A DNA stretch of 64,000 bases from Burkholderiaceae bacterium. Its GTDB lineage: Bacteria > Pseudomonadota > Gammaproteobacteria > Burkholderiales > Burkholderiaceae_B. This document shows, piece after piece, positions 1 through 19,600 of the stretch; positions within the stretch are counted from its first letter, which is position 1; each line of letters opens with the position of its first letter. The stretch is from positions 24,184 to 88,183 of the forward strand of contig JAGOAJ010000008.1 in the NCBI GenBank assembly GCA_017983955.1, read 5' to 3'. The notes under the pieces are model-generated. The model had not been told where the DNA came from. It did no database searches and worked only from the letters and a program-made list of their open reading frames with translations. The translations under genes were made by a program, and so were the position numbers.

Positions 1-344
1 CCCGCAGTCGACTCACGCTCTAGCAACAGCCTATCAAGCACGGCCAAATCTGCCGGGCCGCAGCATTTAGGTATAACCACACCGACAATTCGCTCTACTG
101 GAAGAGCCGCTATATCATCTGCAAACCAGCCAGTGTCCAACCCATTGACACGTATCCATACTTGCTGCTTGGGACATTCTGATGCCTCAAGGGCCGAGAT
201 AGTCGTTGCGCGCCCACCAAGCTTATTTGATGGACCTATGGCATCTTCCCAATCAAATATAAGCGCATCAGCGTCACTTTGAAACGCGCTCGCGATCTTG
301 CGCGGACTATCGCCTGGCACAAACAACCAAGAACGCAAAGTCAT
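1..344 (-). CDS. HpcH/HpaI aldolase - citrate lyase beta (CitE)-like acyl-CoA lyase; 5' part only, the gene runs off the left edge
   Basis: My reverse-strand translation from the ATG at 344 gives MTLRSWLFVPGDSPRKIASAFQSDADALIFDWEDAIG...VWIRVNG...GVVIPKCCGPADL. This matches the N-terminal LFVPG / D-x-ED / R-x-N / PK pattern of CitE-type lyases. The start overlaps the MaoC stop (ATGA). It is absent from the ORF track because it is truncated. Confidence 0.75.
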   Translation of the reverse strand, partial: MTLRSWLFVPGDSPRKIASAFQSDADALIFDWEDAIGPSNKLGGRATTISALEASECPKQQVWIRVNGLDTGWFADDIAALPVERIVGVVIPKCCGPADLAVLDRLLLERESTA

Positions 345-796
345 ATAGTCGGCTCTCTATGCATCAATGCCGAGCGCGTGCAACGCGCCACTTCTGTACC
401 TTTCTGGTTATAGGCTAGGTGCAAAAATTCTACTATACCTGCATTGGGACGAGACGCACTTGCACGCATGGCCACCACCTCCGTTATTACAGATAAGGTA
501 TCGCCTTGAAATACAGGAGCAGGAAAGGCAATCTCACGCATCCCCAGATTGGCAATAGTTGTGCGCAAGGTCGTATCCCCCACGGATATTCCTATCATCA
601 GCCCTAATGTAAAAAGGCTATTCACCAGAGGTTGCCCGAACTCCGTGCCTGATGAATAGTGGGCATCTATATGCAATGGTTGCGGGTTCATGGTCATCGT
701 AGAAAACTGAACGTTATCCCACTCTGTAACCGTGCGCGTCAAGGTATGCTCAAAACGCATACCAACACTGAACTCTTCGTAATATAAGCCGCGCAT
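341..796 (-). CDS. MaoC-like (R)-specific enoyl-CoA hydratase/dehydratase (single hot-dog fold)
   Basis: 151 aa. The sequence YEEFSVGMRFEH...TEWDNVQFSTMTMNPQPLHID...GQPLVNS is typical of MaoC dehydratase domains. It is packed 8 nt downstream of the carboxylase alpha gene. Confidence 0.85.
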   Translation of the reverse strand: MRGLYYEEFSVGMRFEHTLTRTVTEWDNVQFSTMTMNPQPLHIDAHYSSGTEFGQPLVNSLFTLGLMIGISVGDTTLRTTIANLGMREIAFPAPVFQGDTLSVITEVVAMRASASRPNAGIVEFLHLAYNQKGTEVARCTRSALMHREPTI

Positions 797-804
797 AATA
801 TCTC

Positions 805-2835
805 CTAATTAGTCTCTAAGACAAGATCTTGCTGCTCGAGCTCCTGGAGCAGTACTAACACTTGCCCGCTGGAAACAATCTCGCCTATCCCACAATGTAT
901 GGACTCCACCTTACCTTTACGTGGCGCAACCAATGAAAATATCAACTTCATGGCCTCCATGATCACCAGAACATCTCCGGCTTCAACCTCGTCGCCGGGG
1001 GCGACATTGACTGTAGTTACGCTGCCCGGCATCTCGGCCTTAACTTCGCTTTCGCGTGCGCCCACTGCAGCATCTACGCGCGCTAGGGCCTGCAGCTCAG
1101 ACAATACCTGCAGGCGCCATTGCATTCCAGCAGTACTAACAACCGTGGTATCGTTATCTTGGCTCACCAAGTAGTCACTTGCAACACCATGCTTAGGCAT
1201 GACCCGAAAACGTCCATCTGCTAAAAGATCGACATCAACAACTAGTGTCTGACCGTCGATGTCGACCTTCCAACCGTTTGCGTGCCTTTCAAATGCCAAT
1301 AAGGTTTCAACATCGTCCAGGATCACCCGCACCCGGGTGATCGCACGGCGGCCCGTGGCCGACATAAACCGATAGCCATGGCGTTGCTGCCAATAATCAC
1401 GTGTCTGACACTTGCCCAAGGGGAAATCCATCGCCACTAGGCTAGCCACAATCTGAGCTCCAGAAAGTGCGTTCGCGCAAGGGCTCCATCCCGTCGGAAA
1501 TGCCTCACCAAGAAACCCGGTCGTTAAGCGCCCTGCTGTAAACAGGCTATGCTCAACGACTGACATCAAAAACGCCTGATTTGTGCCTATGCCCCCAGCC
1601 TCAAATGTCCGCAGTCCTTCGTGCAAGCGCTCTGCAGCCAAATGCCGTTGAGGGCCATAGCCGATAATCTTCGCGACCATGGAGTCGTAGTAAGGGCTTA
1701 TCGTTGAACCTTGAGCTATACCACTATCAACCCGCACACCAGCAATAGATGGCTCGCTATATCGGTCCACTTCACCTAATAGTGGTCGATAATCATTGCC
1801 AGGGTCTTCACAGTTAATACGAGCCTCAATAGCCCATCCGTTACACTGGATTTGCTCTTGAGTTAGAGGAAGCTGCTCTCCATAAGCGATGCGCAACTGC
1901 CACTCCACAAGATCAAGCCCGGTAATGGTTTCTGTTACTGGATGCTCAACTTGCAAGCGCGTATTCATTTCCAGGAAGTAAGGGTCTTCAGAGCCTTCGC
2001 CTAAAACAAACTCAACCGTTCCCAACGAGTCATAACCAATTTCTCGGCCAAGCCGGATCGCCGCATCAAATAACTTATTCCTCACCAACGGCTGTAAACT
2101 GGGTGCTGGCGCCTCTTCAATGACTTTCTGATAATTGCGCTGAATCGAACATTCACGCTCGAAAATATGCACCAGATTGCCGTGATGATCACCTGCCAGC
2201 TGAACCTCAAGATGGCGAGGCCGAAGTATCAGCTTTTCGATCAACATCCTATCGTCACCGAACGCACGCTGGGCTTCGCGCTTGGCAAGCTCCAGCTGTG
2301 CAAGGAAATCGCTCAGGTCATCTACTCGGCGCATCCCCTTACCACCACCGCCAGCACTAGCCTTGATAAGCAAAGGAACACCTATCGTCTTTGCTTGATT
2401 GTATAAAAACCCAGAGTCCTGATCATCGCCGTGATAGCCTGGTACACACGGAACACCGGCAGCCAGCGCTATGCGCTTGGACTCTATCTTGGAGCCCATG
2501 GACTCAATAACCTCAGCACGCGGACCTATCCAGACTATGCCGTGTTCTTTGCAAGCCCTGACTAAGCTTGTGGACTCCGCTAGAAAGCCATATCCCGGGT
2601 GTATAGCCTGGGCCTTGGTCTGAATCGCTGCGTGAATAATTGCTTCGGTGCTGAGGTAACTCTGTGAGACCTCGGCTTCACCTATGCAAATAGCCTCATG
2701 GGCTTCATGCACATGCCGGGCTTGCGCATCGGCGGTTGAGTAAACAGCAATAGATCGAATACCCAGACGGCGGCAACTGCGAATTACACGGCAGGCAATT
2801 TCACCGCGATTAGCTATCAATACTGATTCAAACAT
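805..2835 (-). CDS. Acyl-CoA carboxylase alpha subunit (biotin carboxylase plus C-terminal biotinyl carrier domain), MCC/GCC-like
   Basis: 676 aa. The N-terminus VLIANRGEIACRVIRSCRRLGI, the ATP-grasp core with EMNTRLQVEHPVTE, and the C-terminal biotinylation motif EAMKL are all present. Confidence 0.92.
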   Translation of the reverse strand: MFESVLIANRGEIACRVIRSCRRLGIRSIAVYSTADAQARHVHEAHEAICIGEAEVSQSYLSTEAIIHAAIQTKAQAIHPGYGFLAESTSLVRACKEHGIVWIGPRAEVIESMGSKIESKRIALAAGVPCVPGYHGDDQDSGFLYNQAKTIGVPLLIKASAGGGGKGMRRVDDLSDFLAQLELAKREAQRAFGDDRMLIEKLILRPRHLEVQLAGDHHGNLVHIFERECSIQRNYQKVIEEAPAPSLQPLVRNKLFDAAIRLGREIGYDSLGTVEFVLGEGSEDPYFLEMNTRLQVEHPVTETITGLDLVEWQLRIAYGEQLPLTQEQIQCNGWAIEARINCEDPGNDYRPLLGEVDRYSEPSIAGVRVDSGIAQGSTISPYYDSMVAKIIGYGPQRHLAAERLHEGLRTFEAGGIGTNQAFLMSVVEHSLFTAGRLTTGFLGEAFPTGWSPCANALSGAQIVASLVAMDFPLGKCQTRDYWQQRHGYRFMSATGRRAITRVRVILDDVETLLAFERHANGWKVDIDGQTLVVDVDLLADGRFRVMPKHGVASDYLVSQDNDTTVVSTAGMQWRLQVLSELQALARVDAAVGARESEVKAEMPGSVTTVNVAPGDEVEAGDVLVIMEAMKLIFSLVAPRKGKVESIHCGIGEIVSSGQVLVLLQELEQQDLVLETN

Positions 2836-2847
2836 TTTCTCTCGCCT

Positions 2848-4446
2848 TTACATACGGAATACAGGTGACGGGCCGGTGATGGGCGCCTCGGCTGCTGCAA
2901 GCGCCAGACACATCCCGATAACCTCACGTGTTTCTGAAGGTTCAATGATTCCATCGTCCCAAAGACGGGCAGTGGCGTAATACGGACTACTTTGCTCGCC
3001 GAACTGCGCGCGAGTAGCGCGCTCGATCTCGGTGATCTCCTCATCCGAAGCGGGCGACTTGAGGCTGCTACGTCTCAAGTCTGTGAGCACGGTGGTGGCA
3101 ATATCTGCGCTCATGGTTGCAATCTGCGAGTTGGGCCATGCGAAGAGAAACCGGGGATCAAATCCGCGCCCACACATTCCATAGTTCCCAGCCCCAAACG
3201 AACCCCCGATAATCACCGTCAAACGGGGGACTCGTGCAGTAGCCATGGCGTACACGAGCTTTGCGCTATGCCTGGCAATACCGCCCCGCTCTGCTTCTGT
3301 ACCCACCATAAACCCGGTAATATTCTGTAAAAACAACAGAGGAATGTTCCTCTGATTGCACAGTTCGATGAAGTGCGCCCCCTTAACCGCAGCATCGGAA
3401 AACAATACGCCATTGTTAGCCAGTATTCCGACAGGGTAACCACAGCAATAGGCTGTTCCACACACCAATGTGGTGCCAAAATCCGGCTTAAACTCTTGGA
3501 AATCGGAATCATCAATCACCCGTGCTATGACCTCGCGGACGTCATAGGGCTCTTTCAAATTGGGCGGCACGACACCGCGTAACTCGCTGATATCGTAGCG
3601 AGGGGCCCGTGGCTCTTTAACCGCTCCATGAATCGGCCGGTCGCGGTTCAGTTTGGCTACAATTTCACGGACTCTTACCAAAGCTTGAGCTTCGTTTTCA
3701 GCCAAGTAATCTGCAACACCTGAGACCTTCACATGCATTTCTGCACCACCCAGGGTCTCACCATCCACGATCTCATTGATGGCCGCTTTGACGATCTGGG
3801 GCCCGCCCAAATGTATACGTGCCTGCCCGCGTACCATTACGGTTTCATCGGACAAGGCTGGAATATATGCGCCGCCGGCAGTGCAACCGCCAAACACTGC
3901 CGCTATCTGTGGAATTCCAGCCGCTGACATTTGGCATTGCCGGTAAAAAGTATTGCCAAAATGATCCTTGTCCGGAAAGACTTTATCTTGCTCGGGCAAA
4001 TAGGCGCCTCCGCAATCCACAAGATAAATCACGGGGAGTTTATGCTGTTGAGCAATGTCCTGGGCTCGTACATGTTTCTTTACTGTTTCAGCAAAAAAAG
4101 ATCCACCTTTGACGGTTGCGTCATTCGCAATCAACATGCAAGGCGTTCCGGCAATCAACCCTATGCCAGTGATAATTCCAGCAGATGGCACCGCATTGCC
4201 GTACATACCCCACGCTGCAAGCGGGGAAAGCTCCATAAAACTAGACTGTGGATCCAGCAGCAGATCAATCCGCTCCCGGGCGAGCATCTTGTTACGGGCA
4301 TGGTGACGCTCTACCAGCTTAGGGCCACCACCTTGCTGTACCTTAGTATGCCGCGCTCGAAGATCGGTAAGCAGGGCATCACTGTGTTGTAAATTGCGCG
4401 CAAAGGACTCGCTCCTGGCGTCGATACGGGATTTAATAACACTCAT
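2848..4446 (-). CDS. Acyl-CoA carboxylase beta subunit (carboxyltransferase), methylcrotonyl-/geranyl-CoA carboxylase-like
   Basis: 532 aa. It has the N-terminal LTDLRARHTKVQQGGGPK...RNKMLARERIDLLLD pattern and two crotonase-like CT halves. It lies adjacent to the alpha subunit. Confidence 0.92.
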   Translation of the reverse strand: MSVIKSRIDARSESFARNLQHSDALLTDLRARHTKVQQGGGPKLVERHHARNKMLARERIDLLLDPQSSFMELSPLAAWGMYGNAVPSAGIITGIGLIAGTPCMLIANDATVKGGSFFAETVKKHVRAQDIAQQHKLPVIYLVDCGGAYLPEQDKVFPDKDHFGNTFYRQCQMSAAGIPQIAAVFGGCTAGGAYIPALSDETVMVRGQARIHLGGPQIVKAAINEIVDGETLGGAEMHVKVSGVADYLAENEAQALVRVREIVAKLNRDRPIHGAVKEPRAPRYDISELRGVVPPNLKEPYDVREVIARVIDDSDFQEFKPDFGTTLVCGTAYCCGYPVGILANNGVLFSDAAVKGAHFIELCNQRNIPLLFLQNITGFMVGTEAERGGIARHSAKLVYAMATARVPRLTVIIGGSFGAGNYGMCGRGFDPRFLFAWPNSQIATMSADIATTVLTDLRRSSLKSPASDEEITEIERATRAQFGEQSSPYYATARLWDDGIIEPSETREVIGMCLALAAAEAPITGPSPVFRM

Positions 4447-4452
4447 GTCAGC

Positions 4453-4923
4453 TCACTCCAGCACGTAGTGGAAGTCAGTAATCTTGCCTTCAGGGGCTTC
4501 ATTGAATACGACTTTTACACGAGTGCCTGGCTTCAATAGCTGAGCAGCTAAAGGAACGTCATCAAGATCCATACCTTTTACGAAATTGACCATTGCTGTG
4601 TCCACACCACTTAGCCTTACAAAGGCAATTGCGTACGGTGGCGTCGGTAAATTGTCGAACGCTGCTGTAACAATCGTTGCTGCCTCAATAACACCATGCT
4701 GCCCCGCTTCGACCCATGCATCGCACACTTCAAAGCTACGTTCGCAATATCCACGTGGTGGCAAATAGGTAATACCCGAGCTTGTACAATGGGTTGCCAA
4801 AATTTTCTTTTCTTTCAGGCCATCAAAGAATCGTGCACCGACTTCCCCCAAAGGGTAACGGTAGCGTACATTCCATTCGGTACTAATCATGTGATTAGCT
4901 GGCGTCATTTCATGCTTACTCAT
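4453..4923 (-). CDS. DUF35 / OB-fold, acyl-CoA-associated protein (thiolase-partner scaffold)
   Basis: 156 aa. A degenerate Zn-ribbon region (HCTSSGITYLPPRGYCERSFEVC) is followed by an OB-fold-like C-terminus. It sits directly downstream of the thiolase-fold genes, as in PhlB/BbsA/ChsH2-DUF35 arrangements. Confidence 0.8.
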   Translation of the reverse strand: MSKHEMTPANHMISTEWNVRYRYPLGEVGARFFDGLKEKKILATHCTSSGITYLPPRGYCERSFEVCDAWVEAGQHGVIEAATIVTAAFDNLPTPPYAIAFVRLSGVDTAMVNFVKGMDLDDVPLAAQLLKPGTRVKVVFNEAPEGKITDFHYVLE

Positions 4924-4939
4924 TTATTTCGTACTCCTT

Positions 4940-6142
4940 TCAGGCAGCGACTATCGCGCGCGGTTCATCACTCAACATAGTGACGGTGAAAAACTGAGTT
5001 GACCCACCAATGGCAGTTGCAATGGCATTGCTTACATTCGGCACCTGCATTTCACCGGCCTTACCCATAACTTGACGAGCGGCATCAGCGACCCGTACAA
5101 GCCCCGTGACCCCAATGGGATTAGTGCATAGCGTCCCGCCTGAAGGATTCACGGCAACTTTGCCATCCATATCAAATACCCCTTCGTCGCTCAAGTGTTG
5201 AGCAGTGCCCCTGCTGCAAAAGCCCAAGGACTCTAGCTGAGGAAACTGGAATGAACTGAAAGGATCGTAGATTTCTACTGCCTGAACCTGCGTAGTCACG
5301 TCGGTAATACCCGCCTGGCGATAACATTGCGCAGCGGCTTGGCTCAGTTCAGAAAAATCCGCGAAATCCGTGTCTCCAGAAGGCACCATCCTGTCGCCCA
5401 TGAAAACTGTATTTGACACACCGGAGGTTCCCGTGATGAATGCTGGTTTGGTGCAATGCTTACGCGCAAAGTTTTCGCTAGTAACAACTAACGCCGCAGC
5501 TCCCGCCGATCGCGGACAAATATCAAACCGCTTGTAGGGCCACGCAATCCGCGGAGAGTCCATGACGGCGTCAATATCTATCAACCCCTTCAAATGTGCC
5601 GATGGATTATTCATGGCATTACGACGTGCCCTGACGACGACATTTGCATATTGCTCTTCTGTTGTGCCATATTTATGCATATAGCGCTGCGTCGCCAACG
5701 CTGTCATGGTTACAGTATTAAGCGCAAAATCCTGCTCGTAAAAAGGATCCCAGATTAGATTTAGAATGAACTGCGCATCTGGCGTTTCTGTCAATCGGTC
5801 AGCGCCAACAACCAAGACTGTCTGGTGCTGCCCTGATGCAATATGGGCATAAGCGGCTTGCAAAGCGGAACCCCCGGTCGCACCACCGGTATGGACCCTC
5901 ATGAAAGGCTTCCCTCTAGCCCAAACATAATCGACAGACCACTTGTCGGCATCAGCAACACCCATAAACGTCGTGGGCGCCATCGAAAAAACCACCGCAT
6001 CTATCTGATCTATCCCTAACCCCGAGTCTTGCAGCGCAAGCACTACAGCATCTTGTGCCAATTCAGGATATGTCTTTTCATCAAACCGCGATTTAAACGG
6101 TGTTTGACCGACGCCTATGATGGCAACATTCTGCGCCCTCAT
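4940..6142 (-). CDS. Thiolase-fold protein, SCP-x/Ltp-type, lacking the canonical nucleophilic Cys
   Basis: 400 aa with SCP-x-type landmarks (DICPRSAGAAALVV, VNPSGGTLCTNPIGVTG). The nucleophile position reads HTGGATGGSAL where NNNCxTGS is expected. There is no Cys in the first ~200 aa. The C-terminal GHP motif reads TNP. Confidence 0.85.
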   Translation of the reverse strand: MRAQNVAIIGVGQTPFKSRFDEKTYPELAQDAVVLALQDSGLGIDQIDAVVFSMAPTTFMGVADADKWSVDYVWARGKPFMRVHTGGATGGSALQAAYAHIASGQHQTVLVVGADRLTETPDAQFILNLIWDPFYEQDFALNTVTMTALATQRYMHKYGTTEEQYANVVVRARRNAMNNPSAHLKGLIDIDAVMDSPRIAWPYKRFDICPRSAGAAALVVTSENFARKHCTKPAFITGTSGVSNTVFMGDRMVPSGDTDFADFSELSQAAAQCYRQAGITDVTTQVQAVEIYDPFSSFQFPQLESLGFCSRGTAQHLSDEGVFDMDGKVAVNPSGGTLCTNPIGVTGLVRVADAARQVMGKAGEMQVPNVSNAIATAIGGSTQFFTVTMLSDEPRAIVAA

Positions 6143-7233
6143 GATTGAACTCCTTCGAAAACCATAAAGCTATGCGTTTGCTGTGCAAAACCCGATACAC
6201 CATGCGCCATTGAGATCTTGGCGTTGTCCACTTGAGTAGCGCCCGCCAACCCGCTCACCTGCAATACCGCTTCTGCCGCGTTAACCAGACTGGTGCAGAA
6301 ATATGGGTTCTGGGCCCATGCCCCTCCGGAAGGACTGATAACTGCCTTGCCGTGGCGGCGAAATACTTGCGTCATTGCCAAATCCGACCAGCCCGTCTGG
6401 GCTTCAAGCTCGATAACATCCAGACTATCCGCGGACTCCAAACCGGCGCGTTTTACCGCCTCCAACAATGCACGCTCGAAGGCCTTCAGTGTCAGGCGCT
6501 CTGCATCAAGCTGATACCGGTCTACCACCGAGCTCATCCCTGCTATGCGAGCCAACGGCTTGCACTCTGGATGGTCCTGTACCCATTTTCCGGATGCCAA
6601 CACCATAGCAACCGCACCATCAGTAATAGATGCACAGTGTTCAGTGCGCAATGGATAAGCAATATAGGAAGACGAGGCGATATCTGCTGTTGAACGCTTC
6701 TTACGCGCGACGGCACGAGTATTTGCTGCAGCAGCCATCATGCGGCTATGTACTTGCATGGCTACGGCATCTTCTGTAAGACCATCATGGTGCATCAACG
6801 AATTAGCAAACAATCCGTCGGCTATTGCAAAATTCAACCCTATTGGGCGCAAGTAAAAGGGTTCTGCGCGCATACGTGCAATGTCTTGCATCGGACTCGC
6901 CGACGCCTGGACCGTGCTCACGACTAAGCCCAAATTCAAGTCGCCCGCCGCCACTCGCATTGCACCAAGCTGCAAGCCAGTCATCCCGGAATCCGTAACT
7001 CGCATTTCATCTTTTAAATAAGCGCCTGATGGCGCCGCAAGCAGCATGCTGCTGATTCCCCGGGCGTCAATCTCGTCACTGGCTGCCAGCGTGACGTGGT
7101 CTATTTGCTCACGCTTGACGCCAGCACTATCCAAAGCTGACCGTGCAGTCCGATAGGCCATTTCCTCAAGCCGCAGGCTATCAACCACATCTGCTGGGGG
7201 CAGCATCCCCACTCCTATCACAAAAACATCCAT
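6139..7233 (-). CDS. Thiolase/condensing-enzyme-fold partner protein (PhlA/HMGCS-like position), also Cys-less
   Basis: I moved the start to the ATG at 7233 (MDVFVIGVGM...), because the track ORF extends to 7407 and would overlap the thioesterase gene. The nucleophile region reads VTDSGMTGLQLG and the C-terminus ISPSGGAWAQNP. A 4-nt overlap with the next gene suggests translational coupling. Confidence 0.7.
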   Translation of the reverse strand: MDVFVIGVGMLPPADVVDSLRLEEMAYRTARSALDSAGVKREQIDHVTLAASDEIDARGISSMLLAAPSGAYLKDEMRVTDSGMTGLQLGAMRVAAGDLNLGLVVSTVQASASPMQDIARMRAEPFYLRPIGLNFAIADGLFANSLMHHDGLTEDAVAMQVHSRMMAAAANTRAVARKKRSTADIASSSYIAYPLRTEHCASITDGAVAMVLASGKWVQDHPECKPLARIAGMSSVVDRYQLDAERLTLKAFERALLEAVKRAGLESADSLDVIELEAQTGWSDLAMTQVFRRHGKAVISPSGGAWAQNPYFCTSLVNAAEAVLQVSGLAGATQVDNAKISMAHGVSGFAQQTHSFMVFEGVQS

Positions 7234-7264
7234 TTCTTGTCCTTGGCTTTTACCGTTAGTCCAA

Positions 7265-7705
7265 TCATGCTTCAGGCCGCGCACGGAATATGCGAAATGT
7301 TCCTGTGGCCTTGCAACACACCTCACCTTGCTCGCTACGAAATTCACTTTCTGCATAAGCAACAGCGCTTCCGTGGCGTACCACTCGCCCTTCCCCATGC
7401 AACACATGCTCTACAGAGGCAAGCGATAAATAAGAAATATTCAAATTCAATGTCGCAATTGCTCGGTTAGGCTGCACCAGAGTGCCTACCGCGGCCCCCT
7501 GAAGAATGTCGTGCAAATACGCCAAAATCGCACCATTTACAGCAGACGTCCCAGCTCCACCACGGTGATGCTCACCCACCAGCAACTGGATACGACTAAC
7601 ACCGCGTTCCAGAGAAACCATGCGTGCGCCAACCCAATCAACATATAGCTGATGGTTCCAGTACTCCAACGTCCAGCGAGTCGGTTGTGTCTCCATGAAA
7701 GACAT
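7265..7705 (-). CDS. PaaI/4HBT-type hot-dog thioesterase
   Basis: 146 aa. The pattern VSRIQLLVGEHHRGGAGTSAVNGAILAYLHD...LNISYL...G matches PaaI-family thioesterases. It is the first gene of the minus-strand operon. Confidence 0.75.
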   Translation of the reverse strand: MSFMETQPTRWTLEYWNHQLYVDWVGARMVSLERGVSRIQLLVGEHHRGGAGTSAVNGAILAYLHDILQGAAVGTLVQPNRAIATLNLNISYLSLASVEHVLHGEGRVVRHGSAVAYAESEFRSEQGEVCCKATGTFRIFRARPEA

Positions 7706-7737
7706 TCTATACTGGACATTCTACACAGTCAATTAAT

Positions 7738-7804
7738 TAACCGACCGGTTAGTTTGCTTCCTAACCAAGATGAAAATGCGTCGTTCAGGCATCTATACCT
7801 GAAC
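7738..7804. promoter_or_regulatory. Two inverted repeats in the divergent promoter: TAACCG-AC-CGGTTA (7738-7751) and GTTCAGG-N8-CCTGAAC (7783-7804)
   Basis: Both have exact arms, which I read directly. They lie between the thioesterase operon start (7705) and the crotonase start (7866). Confidence 0.4.
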
Positions 7805-7865
7805 ATCATCCCAACCATAGCCAACCCAGTACGGGTTATAGATCTGAACTTCTTGGAGATTTCTG

Positions 7866-8690
7866 ATGATAAAAAATTACGAAGGACCTGCATTTGAAGG
7901 TGTGGCCGTACACCTCACCTGGATAGAACGCGCTGTCGCCCTCATCACGTTGACGCGCCCGGAACAAATGAACACGCTTTCTATGGAGCTGATACAAGAG
8001 TTCAATCAGGCACTGAACTTAGTTGATGCCGCCGGGGCCCGCGCTCTGATAATCACAGGGCAAGACCGAGCCTTTTGTTGTGGAGCCCATTTACGCTACT
8101 TCGCCGGACCAGACGCGTCACTTCTCAATTCATTTGATGCACGAGACCGTTATCTTGCAGATATCGCGGTGCTATTTGACCGTCTTGAAGAGCTCCCTTT
8201 CCCGACTATTGCTGCGATTAATGGCTACGCAATGGGCGGCGGGTGCGAACTGGCGTTGTCTTGTGATATCCGAGTCCTGGCGGAAGATGCAAAAATCGGA
8301 CTGCCAGAAACAAAATTAGGCGCCGTGGCGGCTGCTGGCGGCGTTCAGAAACTGATACGTCATGTAGGCCGAAGCCGGGCTCTGGATTGGATACTACGGG
8401 CCACCCATCTTGACTCAGCTACGGTTGAACGTTATGGGCTTTGCTCAGATGTTGTACCCACCTCCGAGCTGATAACCACAGCCTTGAATATAGCGCTGGA
8501 GCTACGTAAACTTGGCCCACGTGCTATCGCTCAATCTAAACGGGCTATCTACCTTAGTGAAGACGCAGACTTACGCACGGCGCGACGCTATGGTCTTGAA
8601 GCCATATCTATTCTTGTCGGCGGTGATGAATGGAAAGAAGGAATGTCAGCCTTCACAGAGAAGCGGACACCTGAATTCGACAGCTGGTAA
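7866..8690 (+). CDS. Enoyl-CoA hydratase/isomerase (crotonase superfamily)
   Basis: 274 aa. It has LTRPEQMNTLS, FCCGAHL, INGYAMGGGCELALSCDIR and GLPETKLG, which are oxyanion-hole and catalytic-Glu motifs. Confidence 0.9.
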   Translation: MIKNYEGPAFEGVAVHLTWIERAVALITLTRPEQMNTLSMELIQEFNQALNLVDAAGARALIITGQDRAFCCGAHLRYFAGPDASLLNSFDARDRYLADIAVLFDRLEELPFPTIAAINGYAMGGGCELALSCDIRVLAEDAKIGLPETKLGAVAAAGGVQKLIRHVGRSRALDWILRATHLDSATVERYGLCSDVVPTSELITTALNIALELRKLGPRAIAQSKRAIYLSEDADLRTARRYGLEAISILVGGDEWKEGMSAFTEKRTPEFDSW

Positions 8691-8695
8691 CAAAT

Positions 8696-9391
8696 ATGCT
8701 GCAAGATCAAAAAACTTCTCAAGAAACGGCGATATCTTTCGAGGATGTGCTTGCATCCCGATACAGCTGCCGGGGATACCTGGAAAACCCAGTGCCTCCT
8801 ACCATCTTGCAGCATATTCTGCGGCTAGCCCAACGCACGCCATCATGGTGTAACTGCCAGCCCTGGGAACTCATAATCACATCAAAAAATGCAACTGAAA
8901 AATTTCGTAAAACCCTGCTTGAACAGGCTCTACTTCCGCCAGAAGAACCCGATTTTACGTGGCCGACAAACTACAACGAGCCGTATTTAAAGCGGCGTAG
9001 AGAATGCGGGTTTGCCCTTTATAACAGCGTTGGCATCAGCAAAAGCGACCGTGTTGGCAGAGCCCGCCAAGAGCAGGAGAATTTCCGCTTTTTTGGAGCC
9101 CCTCATGTAGCAATCGTTACGGTGGATAAAGGGCTGGGCATTTATGGCGCTATAGACTGCGGCGGCTACATCAACACTTTTATGATGGCTGCCTCGGTTT
9201 ACGGCGTTGCTTCTATCGCACAAGCCTCCCTGGCATCCCGGCCCGATTTTATACGGGCCTATTTTGGGATACCCTCAACACGGCACATAGTGTGCGGAAT
9301 TTCGTTCGGATACGCCGATAACAGCCATCCTGCAAACCAATTCAGAACCTCACGTGCGGAGCTGTGTGAAAACATCCAATTCATTGAATGA
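8696..9391 (+). CDS. Nitroreductase-family FMN oxidoreductase
   Basis: 231 aa. It has RYSCRGYL, LAQRTPSWCNCQPW and a C-terminal GISFGY pattern. It begins 5 nt after the crotonase stop. Confidence 0.85.
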   Translation: MLQDQKTSQETAISFEDVLASRYSCRGYLENPVPPTILQHILRLAQRTPSWCNCQPWELIITSKNATEKFRKTLLEQALLPPEEPDFTWPTNYNEPYLKRRRECGFALYNSVGISKSDRVGRARQEQENFRFFGAPHVAIVTVDKGLGIYGAIDCGGYINTFMMAASVYGVASIAQASLASRPDFIRAYFGIPSTRHIVCGISFGYADNSHPANQFRTSRAELCENIQFIE

Positions 9392-11435: not shown

Positions 11436-13145
11436 TTAGGCTTCCACCCCAGCCGCGCGACGCCCAACCAGATAGCCGAATGTCAGCGCAGGCCCCAGCG
11501 TAATCCCGGCACCTGGATAAGAGCCAGACATCAGGGAGTTGGCATCGTTGCCTACCGCGTATAGGCCAGGAATAACCAAAGCGTCTCGGTCACGCACTTC
11601 GCCATAGGCATTGATATCCAACCCCATGGTGGTGCCGATATCACCGGGGAAGATTTCCACGGCATACAAGCGCCCTTCCAGTGGCTTCACACACTGATTA
11701 GGCTGGTGATCGGGGTCGCCCAGTGCCGTCTGGTAAGGCGTGGAACCCTTGCCAAAGGCTGGGTCTTCCCCCCGTTCTGCTGGCCCATTGAACTGCGCAA
11801 TTGTGCTTTCAAGGCCCGCAGCGTCTATGCCGGTTGCTTGGGCAAGCTCATCTACCGTGGCCCCAGTCTTAAGATAGCCCGAGCGCAGGAACGATCCGAT
11901 ACGACCCGGGGCACATGGAACCGCCCCAAGGCCATAACGGCGCAACGCCGCGTGATCGCAAATCAACCATGCTGACTTCTGCTGATCTGCCAGCAGCTTG
12001 GCCACCATGTTCTGGACAAAATCATGATAGCTCAGCGCCTCGTTAGTGAATCGGGAACCATCACGCGCTACTGCCATCACACCGGGCTTGGCCCGGTCCA
12101 TGAACAGATGGGGGAAAGGTCGCTTGGAACCGTCCGCCTGCGGAATCAGCGAAACTGGCGCCCAACTGGCAGCATCGGAGTTAGAGGTCAGAAAATGTGC
12201 CCCTGCGGCTTCTGCCGCCGTCAGCGCACCACCAGTGGAGCTTTCCGGAGCCATAGAGTAATGCGGTAGGCCTTGTTGCACATGGGGGACTGTCTTCGCA
12301 CGACGTACAGCATCTTGCGGAAAACCGCCCGCCGCCAAGACAACTCCACGATCGGTAGCGATGCGCTTGTCCCCCTGAGGCGTCGTTACGACAGCCGCTA
12401 CGACACGTCCCTGCGCATCTCGTTCAATAGAACGCAACTCGTGTCGGGTCAGTACCGGTATGCCTAGTTCGAAGGCCGTCTCAGCCAGACGTGTTACAAG
12501 AGCCGCGCCAAGCTTGATTTTGGTATCGCGCCCGTGAATTAGACGGTCTTTGTAATAACCCAACACCGTCTGAGTAGCCCAGATAAAAGACTTGAGCTGC
12601 CGAGTCATGCGGGTGAAATGATAGAGACCCATGCGTCCCAGTTGCAGACCCCCAAGGATGGTGAACTCGGGGATGGGCGGGCGTAGACGTGTCAGCTCTT
12701 TACCTAGACGCAAACCGTCATGCTCCACTGGATCCAGGGCTCGACCGCCCAACGCGGCTCCCTCAAAATCCGGATGATAGTCTGGAGAATAAGGCCGATG
12801 CGTCATCTGCAAGGCCGTCTCTTCGTGGAAGAAACGTATGGCCTTGGGTCCATTTTCCAAAAAGCTGTCGACCAGTTCAGCGTTAAAACGGTCGCCAGCC
12901 TCGATCTGAAGATAACGGCGGGCCGCGGCCCGGTCATCTTTCATGCCTGCCGCTTCCATTAAGTGATTGCCTGGGCACCAAATAGCACCGCCAGAAAGGG
13001 CTGTTGAACCGCCGAACCATTCCGCTTTTTCGATGATGATGGGGTTCAGGCCGTGCTTGGCCGCCGAAATCGCAGCTGCAAATCCAGCGGCTCCCGAACC
13101 GACTACCAGCAAATCACAACGTTCGGGCAGTTGCTCAGTCGACAT
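11436..13145 (-). CDS. FAD-dependent dehydrogenase, 3-ketosteroid dehydrogenase / fumarate-reductase flavoprotein-like
   Basis: 569 aa. It has the N-terminal dinucleotide fold DLLVVGSGAAGFAAAISAAKHG...EKAEWFGGSTALSGGAIW and the C-terminal GLYAVGN motif typical of KstD/FrdA-like flavoproteins. Confidence 0.85.
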   Translation of the reverse strand: MSTEQLPERCDLLVVGSGAAGFAAAISAAKHGLNPIIIEKAEWFGGSTALSGGAIWCPGNHLMEAAGMKDDRAAARRYLQIEAGDRFNAELVDSFLENGPKAIRFFHEETALQMTHRPYSPDYHPDFEGAALGGRALDPVEHDGLRLGKELTRLRPPIPEFTILGGLQLGRMGLYHFTRMTRQLKSFIWATQTVLGYYKDRLIHGRDTKIKLGAALVTRLAETAFELGIPVLTRHELRSIERDAQGRVVAAVVTTPQGDKRIATDRGVVLAAGGFPQDAVRRAKTVPHVQQGLPHYSMAPESSTGGALTAAEAAGAHFLTSNSDAASWAPVSLIPQADGSKRPFPHLFMDRAKPGVMAVARDGSRFTNEALSYHDFVQNMVAKLLADQQKSAWLICDHAALRRYGLGAVPCAPGRIGSFLRSGYLKTGATVDELAQATGIDAAGLESTIAQFNGPAERGEDPAFGKGSTPYQTALGDPDHQPNQCVKPLEGRLYAVEIFPGDIGTTMGLDINAYGEVRDRDALVIPGLYAVGNDANSLMSGSYPGAGITLGPALTFGYLVGRRAAGVEA

Positions 13146-13926
13146 GAATGGGCTCCGGACGTGGGAACCGGCCTATCGTCCAGCCACCATCGATGGCTAT
13201 CACCTGACCCGTGATGAATGAGGCTTCGTCAGAAGCTAAAAAGCGCACTGCCCTAGCAATGTCCAAAGGCGTACCCACGCGAGGCAAAGGAGTCTGCTCT
13301 ATCATGAGTTGGCGGCGCCATGCTTCGGAGCGTATGCGTTCCGCCGTCAGTGGAGTCTCGATCAAACCTGGGGCTACAGCATTCACTCTGACGCCGGAAG
13401 GACCAAAGTCCGTCGCCATTTGGCGAGTCATGCCGATAACCGCGGCCTTCGATATGGAATAGCCTGCCGAGTTGTACGCACCGATCAGTCCGAATACGGA
13501 GGCGGTATTCACGATAGACCCACCTCCCCGGCGTATCATGCGCGGAATAGCCCAGCGAGACAGTGAAAAGACACCCTTGACGTTAATGTCGAGGTAACGC
13601 TGCAGATCGTCGTCCGATGTTTCTAGTGCATGGGTGCCACGAGCAATACCGGCGTTGTTGATCAGAATATCGATGTCTAGCCCGGCTGCTACCAGCGCGG
13701 CATCGATTTTTTCCAGCAGGCTGGGATCGGTCACATCGCCGGCAACGGGCACGACACGTTCGGAACGAGCCGCCAAGGCCTCAATACCTGCAGCCTCGCG
13801 ATCGATGGCAACCACATGCGCGCCCGTAGCCAAAAGTGCCTCGGCAATAGCTTCGCCTATACCTTGACCCGCACCGGTAACTAAGGCCGTGCGGCCTTTC
13901 AGAGAAGTAAGTTCAAAAGACATCAT
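13135..13926 (-). CDS. Short-chain dehydrogenase/reductase (SDR)
   Basis: It has TALVTGAGQGIG, NNAG and the YSISKAA catalytic Tyr-x3-Lys. I trimmed the start to ATG 13926 (MMSFEL...) so it no longer overlaps the upstream SDR stop at 13934. Confidence 0.9.
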   Translation of the reverse strand: MMSFELTSLKGRTALVTGAGQGIGEAIAEALLATGAHVVAIDREAAGIEALAARSERVVPVAGDVTDPSLLEKIDAALVAAGLDIDILINNAGIARGTHALETSDDDLQRYLDINVKGVFSLSRWAIPRMIRRGGGSIVNTASVFGLIGAYNSAGYSISKAAVIGMTRQMATDFGPSGVRVNAVAPGLIETPLTAERIRSEAWRRQLMIEQTPLPRVGTPLDIARAVRFLASDEASFITGQVIAIDGGWTIGRFPRPEPIHVD

Positions 13927-13933
13927 CGCTTCC

Positions 13934-14677
13934 TTAGAACGCCGCCGTGCCGCCGACCGAGCGGCCACCGTCAACGATCAACACCTGACCCGTCACAAAA
14001 TTGGCACGGGCGTCGGCAAAGTAAGACACCGCATGGGCAATGTCTTCTGGGATACCAAGTTCGCCGGTGGGCTGCTGCTCACGCAGCAGATGCACATCGG
14101 AACGCTCAAGCAGCATCTCGGTCTGGATCACGCCAGGCGCCACGGCGTTGACCGTGATCTGTTTAGCGCCTAAATCCAGAGCAAGAGCCTTGGTGAAACC
14201 GGCCACTGCCGCCTTGGACGAAACGTAATGCGCATAGTTACGGGCGCCAAACGCGGCGCGCGAAGCCAGATTGATGATGCGACCCCATTGCGGCAACTTG
14301 CGAGCAGCCTGCTGAGACAGAGTGAACATGCTCACCAGGTTGACTTCATACATTTTGCGAAAGTCATCGACTGTTAGCTCGTCAAAGGCTTTGACGTTGA
14401 AAATGCCTGCGTTGTTGACCAACACACGCAGTTGATCAGCCCCGTCAATCAGCGCCTGTGTCGCTACCGAATCTGTGATATCCAGGATCTCGGCACGTGC
14501 GTTGTAGCCTTTGGCCTGAAGCTGGTTGACTGTCTCGCGAGCAGGCGCTTCGGCACGGTCGGCCACAATCACATAAAAGCCGTCTTCGGCCAGACGATGT
14601 GCAATGGCGCGGCCAATGCCCGAGCCTGCGCCGGTGACAATTGCGGTTTGTTGAATAGATACAGACATAGGTTTCAC
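13934..14677 (-). CDS. Short-chain dehydrogenase/reductase (SDR)
   Basis: 247 aa with TAIVTGAGSGIGRA, NNAG and YVSSKAA. Confidence 0.9.
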   Translation of the reverse strand: MKPMSVSIQQTAIVTGAGSGIGRAIAHRLAEDGFYVIVADRAEAPARETVNQLQAKGYNARAEILDITDSVATQALIDGADQLRVLVNNAGIFNVKAFDELTVDDFRKMYEVNLVSMFTLSQQAARKLPQWGRIINLASRAAFGARNYAHYVSSKAAVAGFTKALALDLGAKQITVNAVAPGVIQTEMLLERSDVHLLREQQPTGELGIPEDIAHAVSYFADARANFVTGQVLIVDGGRSVGGTAAF

Positions 14678-14702
14678 TTTCTTAATTCACATTACGTCAA
14701 GG

Positions 14703-15821
14703 TCACAGGCCGTAGCCGTTCTCGTCGATTTTGCTATAGATTTCATCCATCACCAATTGAGTAACAACGTCCTCGTTTTGGCGATCCACCTGATCCAGCA
14801 GTTTGGTCCATTTAGCCTGCAAAGCCAGAAACTCATTTGCAACCTCGGTCGGATCTGCAACGCGGCGCTCTTTCTCGGTACGGCCAGGATATGTCGCGAT
14901 CACATTGGCGCGAAACTTGTCCAGCGCATCAACCAGTGTTGGGTCCGGCTGGTCGATAGACACACCACGCTCTTTGGAACCCTGAAGAGCGGACTCCGCC
15001 TCCTGGGCATAAACAATCTGTGTGCGCACGACATTGCGTGCAGTCACATCAAGCAGCTTGCGACGGTTCTGGGCACCGATCTCCTTCCAGAAGTCCTTGT
15101 TATAGACGTAAGTCAGGCCAAGCGTAGCACCCTGCTCCAGCATGGTGATGGTCTTTGCCACTTCCCAGAACTTATAGCCTGACGACAGGTTGGTAGCCTC
15201 GGAAAGCGTGCAGTCAATTGAGCCACGCTCCAGTCCTGAATAAACGTCGGTGATGGGCACAGCCACGGGGATAGCGCCCAGCGAAGCAGCCCATTCGTTT
15301 TGGGCTGTCCCGGCTGTACGAATTTTCACCCCCTTAAGCGAATCCAGATCACCCAGAGTACGCATGCACAGAAAAAGGTAGGGTGGTGTCGAATAGGCGC
15401 CCACGGTTACGGTGTTGTGCTTTGCAAGTTCATCCAGCAAGCGCTGATTGGTCATAGAAATCTCAGTGATCGCAAAACCAGTGGCCATACCGTCGGTGGC
15501 CACGAAAGCCAAGTCATTGATCATTCCCGATAGAGGCAGATCAGATGGGGTGTAAGAAGCAGAAACTATCCCCAATTGCGCTACACCATCGCCCACCGCA
15601 CCCAATGTGGTCTGGGCGGGGACCAGAGAACCCGACGAAAAAATCTCGAAGTCAATGTCGCCACCAGTCACTTGCTTGACATCTGCGGCAAAGGTTCCGT
15701 AGGCTACGTTATTAAGAACGTGCGCCGGGCCCAACCAATTGGTCGCCTGATAGGTATCGGCATGCGCCGACGCGAACGCCAGAGCGGAAACAGCAGTAAA
15801 CAATAGTTTTTTCACGATCAC
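14703..15821 (-). CDS. dctP: TRAP transporter solute receptor, DctP family (copy A)
   Basis: 372 aa with a signal peptide ...ALAFASAHA/DT and DctP-like blocks (FEIFSSGSLVP, RTAG...ASLGAIPVAV...VYSGLERGSIDC). The start is a GTG at 15821 or at 15815. It overlaps or abuts the stop of copy B. Confidence 0.85.
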   Translation of the reverse strand: MIVKKLLFTAVSALAFASAHADTYQATNWLGPAHVLNNVAYGTFAADVKQVTGGDIDFEIFSSGSLVPAQTTLGAVGDGVAQLGIVSASYTPSDLPLSGMINDLAFVATDGMATGFAITEISMTNQRLLDELAKHNTVTVGAYSTPPYLFLCMRTLGDLDSLKGVKIRTAGTAQNEWAASLGAIPVAVPITDVYSGLERGSIDCTLSEATNLSSGYKFWEVAKTITMLEQGATLGLTYVYNKDFWKEIGAQNRRKLLDVTARNVVRTQIVYAQEAESALQGSKERGVSIDQPDPTLVDALDKFRANVIATYPGRTEKERRVADPTEVANEFLALQAKWTKLLDQVDRQNEDVVTQLVMDEIYSKIDENGYGL

Positions 15822-16930
15822 AATCCGTAGCTGTTTTCGTCGATCTTGCTGTAGATTTCATCGCCCACCAGCTTGGCCAGTGCTTGTTGGTCATAGCGGT
15901 CGATCTGAGCCAACAACTTCACCCACTTGTCTTGCAACGCCAAAAACTCTGTTGCAATCTCGGTAGGATCAGCAACGCGACGCTCTTTCTCGGTACGGCC
16001 GGGATATGTCTCAATTACATTGGCGCGGAATTTTTCCAATGCCTCAACGAGAGTCGGATGCGGTTCAACAATCGCCAAACCACGTTCTTTGGAACCTTCC
16101 AGGGCAGACTCCACCGCCTTGGAGTAAGCGATCTGCGTGCGGGCCACATTGACAGCGGTCACATCAAGCAGCTTGCGACGGTTCTGAGCGCTGATTTCCT
16201 TCCAGAAATCCTTGTTGTAGACATAGGTCAGGCCTAGCGAAGTGCCCTGTGTCAGCATGGTGATGGTCTTTGCCACTTCCCAGAATTTATAACCAGCCTC
16301 TAGGTTGGTAGGATCCGAAAGCGTGCAATCAATAGAACCGCGCTCTAGCCCCGAATAAACATCAGTCATGGGCACGGCCACGGGGATGGCGCCCAGCGAA
16401 GCAATCCACTCATTCTGGGCGGTACCCGCTGTACGTACTTTTTTGCCCTTCAGGGAGTCCAAATCTCCCAGCTCACGCATGCACAGGAAAACGTAGGTCG
16501 GTGTCGAATAGGCGCCCAGAACCAGCGTGTTGTGTTTGGCCAGCTCATCTATCATGCGCTGATTCGTCAAGGAAATCTCGGTCAGCGCAAAAGCCGTGGC
16601 CATGTCATCATTAGCCACAAAGGCCAAATCATTGATGAGTCCCGACAGCGGCAAGTCAGATGGAGTGTAAGAGGCCGCAACGATTCCCAATTGCGCTACG
16701 CCGTCACCCACGGCACCCAGTGTGGTCTGAGCGGGTACAAGGGAACCGGAAGAAAACAGTTCAAAGTCGATATCGCCGCCAGTCGCTTCCTTGGCATCGG
16801 CAATAAAGGCTTCATAGGCCACACCGTTAAGGATGTGCGTCGGCGACATCCAGTTAGATGCCTGGTAGGTATCAGCATGGGCTGACGCGAACGCCAGGGC
16901 GGAAATAGCGGTAAAAAGAATTTTTTTCAT
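15818..16930 (-). CDS. dctP: TRAP transporter solute receptor, DctP family (copy B)
   Basis: 370 aa. It is collinear with copy A and, by eye, identical at roughly four of five residues. It has the same signal peptide and the same C-terminal ...EIYSKIDEN.YGL. Confidence 0.85.
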   Translation of the reverse strand: MKKILFTAISALAFASAHADTYQASNWMSPTHILNGVAYEAFIADAKEATGGDIDFELFSSGSLVPAQTTLGAVGDGVAQLGIVAASYTPSDLPLSGLINDLAFVANDDMATAFALTEISLTNQRMIDELAKHNTLVLGAYSTPTYVFLCMRELGDLDSLKGKKVRTAGTAQNEWIASLGAIPVAVPMTDVYSGLERGSIDCTLSDPTNLEAGYKFWEVAKTITMLTQGTSLGLTYVYNKDFWKEISAQNRRKLLDVTAVNVARTQIAYSKAVESALEGSKERGLAIVEPHPTLVEALEKFRANVIETYPGRTEKERRVADPTEIATEFLALQDKWVKLLAQIDRYDQQALAKLVGDEIYSKIDENSYGL

Positions 16931-16952
16931 TACTTAATCCAATATATTTTGA

Positions 16953-18257: not shown

Positions 18258-18266
18258 CGTGCTTCC

Positions 18267-18779
18267 TTAAAGAGCTGCGTGAGTTGACTCAACCGGGTCA
18301 ACCAGCGTGATCCTGTCGCCGCCGAAGATCTTCAGCAACAGCACGATACAAGCGATCGCCAAGCCCAGCGGCAGCATGAACTTCGCTGGCCAGACCGTAA
18401 CCCGCCACAACCCGTCGACACTTTCATTGATCCTGAAGGCCCGCATAGCAAGGTCCCAGGAAAACCAACCCAAGCCAACATAGAACGCCAGCGTGCCTAC
18501 CTGACCGATCTTGCGCATGATAAGTTTGCCCCGCTCGCCAACATTGTCGTAAATAAGATCAACCGATATTGCCGAACCACGGGCTTCTATATATGCCAGC
18601 GCCAAAAATACGCAAGCAATCATGTAATAGTTAGCCACGACCTCGGCCGTGCTTGGCACAGGCATGTGCAACAAATACTTGCCCAGCACATCGGCCATCA
18701 CATGAAACATCATCAATGCCACAGACAAGCCCGCCATCCAGGCCAATGCATCCGTCAGTGTTTTTATCGCTTTAATCAT
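18267..18779 (-). CDS. dctQ: TRAP transporter small permease (DctQ)
   Basis: 170 aa with 4 TM helices, immediately upstream of dctM. Confidence 0.85.
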   Translation of the reverse strand: MIKAIKTLTDALAWMAGLSVALMMFHVMADVLGKYLLHMPVPSTAEVVANYYMIACVFLALAYIEARGSAISVDLIYDNVGERGKLIMRKIGQVGTLAFYVGLGWFSWDLAMRAFRINESVDGLWRVTVWPAKFMLPLGLAIACIVLLLKIFGGDRITLVDPVESTHAAL

Positions 18780-18823
18780 TTTTCATCCTTTGCTCATCAC
18801 CTGCCTTGCAGACGATCGACGAT

Positions 18824-19567: not shown

Positions 19568-19600
19568 CGTGGCTGAGCCTTTTTCAATCATTGCAAAAAA

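Follow-up and report, generated by a model that had tools for sequence, protein, structure and literature searches.

The window analysed here is a 64,000-nucleotide (nt) stretch of contig JAGOAJ010000008.1 from a Burkholderiaceae metagenome-assembled genome (MAG), and at its left edge it carries a minus-strand operon of eight tightly packed genes, resolved from the open reading frame (ORF) list and from Pfam and NCBIfam scans, that includes both subunits of a biotin-dependent acyl-coenzyme A (CoA) carboxylase. The first gene encodes a 4HBT (hotdog, PaaI-type) thioesterase (7265 back to a start at 7705 or 7696; TIGR00369 at 38.7 bits, exceeding the cut-off of 36.6, and Pfam 4HBT at 33 bits). 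After a gap of ~31 nt comes ThlA, a degenerate thiolase-fold protein of 364 aa (7233-6139; weak Thiolase_N and Thiolase_C_1 in Pfam), whose start was taken from the gene call and from homologue length, a 422-aa ORF starting at 7407 being rejected. The ThlA stop lies over the start of ThlB, an SCP2-thiolase-fold protein (6142-4940; Pfam Thiolase_C_1 and Thiolase_N), in a 4-nt overlap; 16 nt beyond ThlB stands a stand-alone DUF35 protein (OB-fold, ChsH2 C-terminal type; 156 aa; 4923-4453; Pfam OB_ChsH2_C at 37.9 bits), separated by 6 nt from a carboxyltransferase beta subunit (532 aa; 4446-2848; Pfam Carboxyl_trans at 483 bits), itself 12 nt from a biotin carboxylase alpha subunit (676 aa; 2835-805) with BC, weak BT and BCCP domains and an EAMKL biotinylation motif. 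A MaoC-family (R)-specific enoyl-CoA hydratase (151 aa; 796-341; MaoC_dehydratas at 80 bits, MC_hydratase at 55 bits) begins 8 nt after alpha, and its stop shares a 4-nt ATGA overlap with the start of a CitE/HpcH-type beta-hydroxyacyl-CoA lyase, of which the N-terminal 114 codons fall in the window (344-1, running off the edge; Pfam HpcH_HpaI at 54 bits). Divergently, on the plus strand, lies a crotonase-family enoyl-CoA hydratase of 274 aa (7866-8690; Pfam ECH_1 at 189 bits) in which both catalytic Glu motifs are visible (GGGCELAL and GLPETKLG); it is the sole crotonase of the locus, is generic and shows no specific similarity to LiuC, and the locus has no HMGL-family lyase. A first-pass annotation of this DNA had named the same gene set, with the thioesterase and a Cys-less thiolase-fold/DUF35 set at the operon's head and the crotonase transcribed divergently; every gene was confirmed in place, and its 8-nt (alpha-MaoC) and 4-nt (MaoC/CitE) junctions are exact.

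The left flank could be read from a second contig of the same sample (L082). The operon had been thought to continue past the window edge, and it does so only for the rest of CitE, which is 286 aa in full and the operon's last gene. Past CitE a convergent operon runs from a binding protein through a two-subunit CoA_trans pair and the two permeases and two ATPases of a LIV-type ATP-binding cassette (ABC) system to an AMP-forming acyl-CoA ligase, and a TetR gene lies beyond it. The CoA_trans pair (L082 7461-9139, outside the window) is not ScoA/ScoAB-like; its best or near-best solved relatives are AibA (94 bits) and GctA (87 bits), with IpdA also close, all at low identity. AibA (of the 3-methylglutaconyl-CoA decarboxylase AibA/AibB) and GctA (glutaconate CoA-transferase) act on (3-methyl)glutaconyl-type compounds, so relatives of this type fit the product expected of the carboxylase.

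NCBI labels the window beta subunit a methylcrotonoyl-CoA carboxylase (MCC). Against solved structures it scores 644 bits with the Pseudomonas aeruginosa MCC beta subunit (PaMCC beta), 626 bits with Mycobacterium tuberculosis AccD1 and 464 bits with the beta subunit of geranyl-CoA carboxylase (GCC; 5ikl); the best solved relative of alpha is likewise P. aeruginosa MCC alpha (523 bits), and the Pfam domains of alpha are Biotin_carb_N, CPSase_L_D2, Biotin_carb_C and Biotin_lipoyl, with a BT_MCC_alpha match (22 bits) under the cut-off of 31. A published rule separates the two carboxylases: MCC has Phe191, which blocks geranyl-CoA, after a 3-residue insertion, whereas GCC has Gly and no insertion (PMC4673880). 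Window F163 aligns with human F191, and Phe157, Phe163 and Phe167 are all kept in a segment without insertion or deletion; Phe191 was located through a 28-residue offset to human numbering, and we infer that PMC4673880 numbers PaMCC by the human protein. The GCC-type signature (Gly at Phe191, lost insertion) was not found in the window beta subunit, which aligns with PaMCC beta from residue 1 and has the N-terminal helix that the beta subunit of propionyl-CoA carboxylase lacks. With the Phe segment kept and no gap, the pocket should therefore be of the MCC type. The operon would thus share with the Liu (LiuABCDE) and Atu (AtuCF GCC, AtuE) systems of Pseudomonas the biotin-dependent gamma-carboxylation of a 3-methyl-2-enoyl-CoA that unblocks a beta-methyl branch; unlike Atu GCC, its beta subunit keeps the Phe and the insertion, and unlike Liu it has beta and alpha adjacent with no liuC between them, a distinct beta clade, and MaoC and CitE where Liu uses the LiuC crotonase and the HMGL-family LiuE.

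In a scan of one genome per species, beta homologues comprised 32 loci at 66-84% identity (L002-L033, which with the window make up what we call clade A), followed by a sharp drop to 55-59%. A neighbor-joining tree without outgroup placed clade A apart from the characterised MCCs with 100/100 bootstrap support, the canonical clade holding the P. aeruginosa, Legionella, M. tuberculosis (AccD1), M. smegmatis-type and human enzymes as well as all loci of the classical liuB-crotonase-liuD layout. That the carboxylase does not cluster with housekeeping LiuB, as the first-pass annotation's idea of a distinct pathway supposes, is thereby borne out. Canonical MCCs are at least 64% identical among themselves, from bacteria to human, and the window beta subunit is 51-59% identical to them; judged by identity, human MCC lies closer to bacterial MCCs than the window protein does. 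At 38 diagnostic positions clade A has one residue in all or nearly all sequences (at least 29 of 32) and the canonical clade is fixed for another, and several of these flank the Gly-rich catalytic loops (GGSFFxET vs GGTYYPLT; DCGGA vs DSGGA; GGCTAGG vs GSCTAGG; Tyr385 replaced by Ala). Because both clades contain Burkholderiales, Gammaproteobacteria and Acetobacteraceae, clade A is better read as a paralogous subfamily than as one lineage's orthologue. The window carboxylase thus belongs to a separate MCC-like subfamily, and what it truly acts on may be 3-methylcrotonyl-CoA or a closely related compound. As an aside, a chain in PDB entry 9tps titled 'Propionyl CoA carboxylase beta subunit' groups with the MCC beta subunits; its deposited name appears wrong, related entries (9TQC and 9TQG) being cited in the paper on the Legionella MCC.

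Downstream of the carboxylase, MaoC follows beta-alpha directly in 9 of the 32 clade-A loci, CitE being detected in 8 of those 9, and MaoC-CitE stands after beta-alpha in every window-type locus found (synteny counts here and below rest on tblastn); the window MaoC is 62-78% identical to MaoC proteins downstream of clade-A carboxylases. Because many genomes keep the pair in synteny with the carboxylase, it is functionally tied to that enzyme and is not a stray itaconate module of the kind that the first-pass annotation had allowed for. That annotation had also described the pairing of MaoC and CitE as otherwise known from mesaconyl-/itaconyl-CoA chemistry; it is not confined to that chemistry, since the mycobacterial AccD1-AccA1 operon has a MaoC together with Rv2498c. 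In M. tuberculosis the citE-scoA operon encodes AccD1-AccA1, a proven MCC (PMC4347857), and Rv2498c is a proven (R)-3-hydroxy-3-methylglutaryl (HMG)-CoA lyase, mycobacterial leucine catabolism proceeding via (R)-HMG-CoA (PMC6689899); the Rv2498c papers and supplement make no mention of Rv2499c or MaoC. With this published precedent, the core pathway idea is not new.

The M. tuberculosis-complex locus, which we found by the exact AccD1 sequence (L121), reads TetR, AMP-ligase, two CoA_trans genes, beta, alpha, acyl-CoA dehydrogenase (ACAD), MaoC (153 aa) and CitE (273 aa). The mycobacterial operon (Rv2498c-Rv2504c) and ours thus both place beta-alpha, MaoC and CitE in one operon, both have a TetR gene, an acyl-CoA ligase and a two-subunit CoA-transferase, and both would follow a common logic of carboxylation, (R)-hydration and lyase cleavage. 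Over 147 aa the window MaoC shares 49% identity with its mycobacterial counterpart, which is much closer to it than any solved MaoC protein, and this level of identity suggests that the two may be orthologues. Identity is 55% for beta and 41% for alpha, and only 32% for CitE, no closer than to RipC. The window operon further differs in having a beta subunit from another clade than AccD1, in having no ACAD where the mycobacterial operon has FadE19, in its AibA/Gct-like rather than ScoAB-like transferase pair, and in the addition of ThlA-ThlB-DUF35, the thioesterase and the divergent crotonase. The same two families also serve as the hydratase-lyase pair on beta-hydroxyacyl-CoAs in Ich/Ccl (RipB/RipC) and in Mch/Mcl (3-hydroxypropionate and ethylmalonyl-CoA pathways); unlike Ich/Ccl, the window pair is always carboxylase-coupled, has no Ict-type transferase and remains below the equivalog cut-offs, MaoC reaching 123.7 bits of the required 340 with the RipB/Ich model and full-length CitE 173 of 375 with RipC/Ccl and 141 of 443 with CitE in NCBIfam. 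Full-length CitE (from L082) also matches C-C_Bond_Lyase, its best solved relatives are Yersinia pestis RipC (119.6 bits) and M. tuberculosis Rv2498c (117 bits), and its ETA and GAEDL stretches are aligned in both of those alignments.

The second unusual element of the operon is its thiolase-fold pair. Compared with archaeal and SCP2-type thiolases, ThlB has Gly87 at the nucleophilic Cys, YDPF for HDCF and Asn341 for the catalytic His; across 120 homologues G87, Y292, D293 and F295 are invariant, P294 is kept in 113 and N341 in 115. In ThlA the nucleophile position is taken by Thr, and neither an HDCF nor a YDxF motif is present, so the description of both proteins as Cys-less was correct; a role for ThlAB as the thiolase for a keto-acyl-CoA product was considered and rejected, both subunits being without the nucleophile. 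ThlA also evolves faster, being 64% identical to its L002 counterpart where ThlB is 82% identical, and is probably a non-catalytic, degenerate thiolase-fold partner subunit. The window-type DUF35 protein has a degenerate zinc ribbon, with CxxS for the usual CxxC followed by C-x6-C, whereas the soil-type homologues described below keep CxxC...C-x6-C. Two thiolase-fold retro-aldolases are characterised: Ltp2, which has YDHF together with Tyr344, and Sal, which has YDCY and a Gly where the nucleophile would be; each uses the motif Tyr as its catalytic base and is partnered by a DUF35 domain (PMC12329534). Their positions were transferred to ThlB by the spacing given there, not by direct alignment to Ltp2. 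Like the Ltp2-ChsH2 and Sal-Shy systems, ThlB combines the SCP2-thiolase fold with a lost Cys (Gly as in Sal), the motif Tyr and a DUF35 partner; it differs from them in its YDPF motif, in Asn at the Tyr344/Gln352 position, in the extra degenerate thiolase-fold subunit (ThlA), in a DUF35 that is a free protein with a CxxS ribbon, and in having no steroid context. By these motifs ThlB is most likely a candidate catalytic subunit of a retro-aldolase, a variant of the thiolase-fold aldolase type. A literature search for DUF35 together with a biotin carboxylase returned nothing relevant.

The full layout (divergent crotonase; optional thioesterase; ThlA-ThlB-DUF35-beta-alpha-MaoC-CitE; convergent ligase and ABC genes) recurs in the same gene order elsewhere in Burkholderiales and in related metagenomes, where at least six more distinct loci are complete, one of which was read three times. 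Paraburkholderia sp. ZP32-5, Variovorax paradoxus, a Polaromonas MAG and four contigs from metagenomes hold complete copies; a further four contigs, shorter and cut off, agree with it as far as they reach. Since this order recurs across distinct loci, the arrangement is not due to chance. Orthologues of the crotonase, 65-77% identical, stand divergent from ThlA in all window-type loci. The thioesterase is present in Variovorax (L083-L085), L090 and L092, is absent from L002, and was not detected beside ThlA in L088, L093, L095, L096, L105 or L114; given this patchy presence among related loci it is accessory. In V. paradoxus (L083-L085, 2000-7300) transposase genes of the IS66 and IS3 families lie on either side of the operon, and an identical Variovorax ThlB appears in 73 indexed blocks of the collection, which together with the transposases suggests recent mobility or a widely sampled strain.

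The operon and its relatives also share a putative control element. A promoter-like site upstream of the operon (TTGACT-17-TAGAAT, 7732-7704, minus strand) emerged from the promoter scan, and adjoining it is the palindrome TAACCGACCGGTTA (7738-7751), which occurs once in the 64 kb. In nine of ten window-type loci scanned, a T[GA]ACC-N4-GGT[TC]A palindrome with an ATTGACC -35 box was found only in the crotonase/ThlA intergenic region; the palindrome of L093 is degenerate, and L088, L095 and L096 have second copies. From this conservation, TAACCGACCGGTTA is likely a candidate TetR operator ahead of the operon.

ThlB homologues of 68-73% identity also occur without a carboxylase. In Hydrogenophaga, ThlAB-DUF35 is accompanied by TetR, an ACAD, an orthologous crotonase (60% identical to that of the window), two AMP-binding (ligase-type) genes, among them the orthologous ligase, and ABC genes, with no carboxylase; in ~15 soil loci ThlAB-DUF35 stands with PaaX and a TonB-dependent receptor, and about half of these also have an orthologous ligase (~60% identity). 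The Hydrogenophaga ACAD is 71% identical to the ACAD adjoining a clade-A carboxylase and MaoC in L006, a link that places the two modules in a single pathway. ACADs of the family accompanying clade A share only ~35% identity with mycobacterial FadE19, and NCBIfam gave no classification for the neighbouring ACADs.

Clade-A carboxylases also appear in other surroundings. In four loci from Porticoccaceae and related bacteria (L011, L013, L016, L030) an ACAD follows beta-alpha in place of MaoC-CitE, with no hydratase or lyase within 10 kb; in all of these except L016 an APH-like kinase, two ACADs, a short-chain dehydrogenase/reductase (SDR) and a MAPEG protein precede beta-alpha. The clade-A cluster of L004 contains a 1166-aa indolepyruvate-ferredoxin-oxidoreductase-like protein, a GlcD-like FAD oxidase and ThlA-ThlB-DUF35, and is adjoined at 900-5900 by a full set of biotin synthesis families (BioD-type AAA_26, bioF- and bioA-like genes, a bioB-like radical SAM/BATS gene and a bioC-like methyltransferase). 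L003 and L004 are typical proteobacterial clade-A clusters that carry Candidatus Paceibacteria and Candidatus Neomarinimicrobiota MAG titles, which may reflect mis-binning.

The best explanation of the locus as a whole, which we put forward tentatively and hold at a little short of an even chance, is a repressor-controlled catabolic operon whose two modules would break carbon-carbon bonds at a blocked tertiary beta-carbon; the part of the mechanism that runs through the carboxylase, MaoC and CitE we regard, taken by itself, as probable. The substrate would most likely be a short beta-methyl-branched acyl-CoA, the corresponding acid being imported by the LIV-type ABC system and activated by the acyl-CoA ligase, the regular partner of ThlAB-DUF35. 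The clade-A carboxylase would then use ATP and biotin to carboxylate the gamma carbon of a 3-methyl-2-enoyl-CoA roughly as large as 3-methylcrotonyl-CoA, MaoC would hydrate the product to the (R)-alcohol, and CitE would perform a Mg-dependent cleavage to acetyl-CoA and a beta-keto acid, making beta-alpha-MaoC-CitE the proteobacterial counterpart of the AccD1-AccA1-MaoC-Rv2498c route. ThlA-ThlB-DUF35 could act as a heteromeric, Cys-less thiolase-fold retro-aldolase on a tertiary (S)-3-hydroxyacyl-CoA supplied by the crotonase, so that crotonase and ThlAB-DUF35 would form a second hydratase-lyase route, with the opposite stereochemistry, out of the same family of intermediates, to which the convergent operon would add its glutaconate-CoA-transferase/AibA-type pair. 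We lean slightly towards an uncarboxylated hydroxyacyl-CoA as the substrate of ThlAB-DUF35, with a methyl ketone as product, because stand-alone ThlAB-ligase modules exist; a carboxylated substrate, which would make the complex an analogue of HMG-CoA lyase, is favoured by the fused operon and by the chemistry proposed for sitosterol. A different sequence, in which mesaconyl-CoA is carboxylated to aconityl-CoA and cleaved by a citryl-CoA lyase, was rejected on the grounds that mesaconyl-CoA is cleavable without carboxylation.

Several observations weigh against this proposal. ThlB is without the known general acids, having Pro294 for His/Cys and Asn341 at the Tyr344/Gln352 position; two hydratase-lyase pairs in one operon look redundant; and no ACAD was found by Pfam in the operon or in 10 kb of left flank. 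The 38 differing positions by the catalytic loops imply that 3-methylcrotonyl-CoA may not be the substrate, and the PaaX/TonB setting of the soil ThlAB-DUF35 loci hints at a different, possibly aromatic, acid. As for the first-pass annotation's suggestion of a distinct branch-removal route, the separate carboxylase clade and the missing HMGL lyase speak for it, and its novelty is curtailed by the (R)-route that already exists in mycobacteria.

Among the competing explanations, ordinary leucine or isovalerate catabolism is unlikely, though the least so. Under it the clade-A enzyme would be the lineage's MCC, working via (R)-HMG-CoA, and ThlAB-DUF35, the thioesterase and the crotonase would be unrelated genes sharing a promoter; the NCBI name, the retained Phe segment, a gene inventory matching that of the mycobacterial leucine operon, and the occurrence of ThlAB-DUF35 elsewhere without a carboxylase are all in its favor. 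However, a beta subunit 51-59% identical to canonical MCCs is hard to square with the at least 64% that those enzymes maintain from human to bacteria, and canonical liuB-enoyl-CoA hydratase-liuD loci are also present in Burkholderiales and other Betaproteobacteria (L040, L049, L064), so clade A is not simply the lineage's orthologue. Nor does the locus have an isovaleryl-CoA dehydrogenase, the clade-A ACAD family is only ~35% identical to FadE19, and six more distinct, complete loci preserve the fusion with ThlAB-DUF35 and share one operator. There is a slim chance that the pathway is built around a new gamma-carboxylating subfamily whose substrate is not 3-methylcrotonyl-CoA and which is fed by the YDPF thiolase-fold/DUF35 aldolase. 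If true, one form of it would be methyl-ketone assimilation, a biotin-dependent alternative to acetone carboxylase, which we consider slightly less probable still: ThlAB-DUF35 would condense acetone or butanone with acetyl-CoA to a 3-hydroxy-3-methylacyl-CoA, the crotonase would dehydrate it, and carboxylase, MaoC and CitE would lead on to acetoacetate and acetyl-CoA. Such a scheme gives every operon gene a role without a redox step, makes gene order equal to the proposed pathway order, and explains why crotonase and aldolase replace the ACAD of other clade-A carboxylases. Aldol addition to a ketone is thermodynamically uphill, however, which counts against the scheme, the conserved ABC importer and acid-CoA ligase point to an acid substrate, close ThlB homologues stand with an ACAD in a plainly catabolic layout (Hydrogenophaga), and we found no precedent in the literature for 3-hydroxyisovaleryl-CoA with acetone; a lead through the tert-amyl alcohol/Aquincola literature likewise gave nothing relevant.

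The two substrates suggested by better-known relatives fare worse. It is very unlikely that MaoC and CitE act apart from the carboxylase to break down a C5 dicarboxylate (itaconate, mesaconate or citramalate): RipB/Ich and RipC/Ccl are indeed the best NCBIfam matches, and a CoA-transferase-like pair lies nearby, but the scores are far under the equivalog cut-offs (123.7 against 340 and 173 against 375), the transferase pair belongs to the Gct/AibA type, the MaoC encoded in the mycobacterial leucine operon is a closer relative (49%), and MaoC-CitE always comes directly after beta/alpha, with 8-nt and overlapping junctions. Least probable of all, we believe, is the removal of branches from terpenoid or sterol side chains, as in Atu or in the proposed C28 carboxylation of sitosterol, an idea that the first-pass annotation had floated and that the data do not support. 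Its one attraction is a precedent in which the thiolase-like aldolases Ltp3/Ltp4 are implicated in cleavage of C24-branched sterol side chains (PMC6593523), a heteromeric thiolase-fold pair likewise adjoining the carboxylase here. The beta subunit, by contrast, keeps the MCC-type segment with the Phe that blocks geranyl-CoA, shows no GCC-type deletion and matches GCC beta far more weakly than MCC beta (464 vs 644 bits); no steroid-ring, Mce, Atu, Liu or terpene genes occur in the 64 kb window and no steroid-ring, Mce or Atu genes in related loci; and the transporter is a LIV-type ABC system.

The operon thus varies a route that is already known rather than bringing chemistry of a new kind; what is uncharacterised is carboxylase clade A, the YDPF aldolase-like heteromer, and their conserved fusion under one operator. 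If the proposed catabolic operon is real, the (R)-specific MaoC/CitE route of branch removal, so far shown only in mycobacteria, would extend to Proteobacteria, and there would be a second MCC-like carboxylase subfamily that annotation now lumps with methylcrotonoyl-CoA carboxylase. The small group of thiolase-fold aldolases would likewise gain a non-steroid member with a different active-site motif. Because the identical operon is present in two cultured hosts, V. paradoxus and Paraburkholderia sp. ZP32-5, these predictions can be tested directly.

Beyond the operon, a nitroreductase-family gene (8696-9391, plus strand; Pfam Nitroreductase at 80 bits) begins 5 nt past the crotonase; it is missing at this position in L002, L083, L088 and L090 and so lies outside the conserved system. 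The rest of the window contains a TRAP-transporter cluster, an arginase, an ornithine cyclodeaminase, peptide and NMT1-type ABC systems and other unrelated genes. The TRAP cluster (11436-20431, minus strand), with a 569-aa FAD_binding_2 protein (KstD/fumarate-reductase-like), three SDRs, two DctP, a DctM and a DctQ and a divergent GntR/FCD regulator, is a TRAP-dependent catabolic unit. Finally, a 511-aa ORF (31395-32930, minus strand) that matches no Pfam family at E<=1e-8 adjoins a gamma-glutamyltranspeptidase gene.

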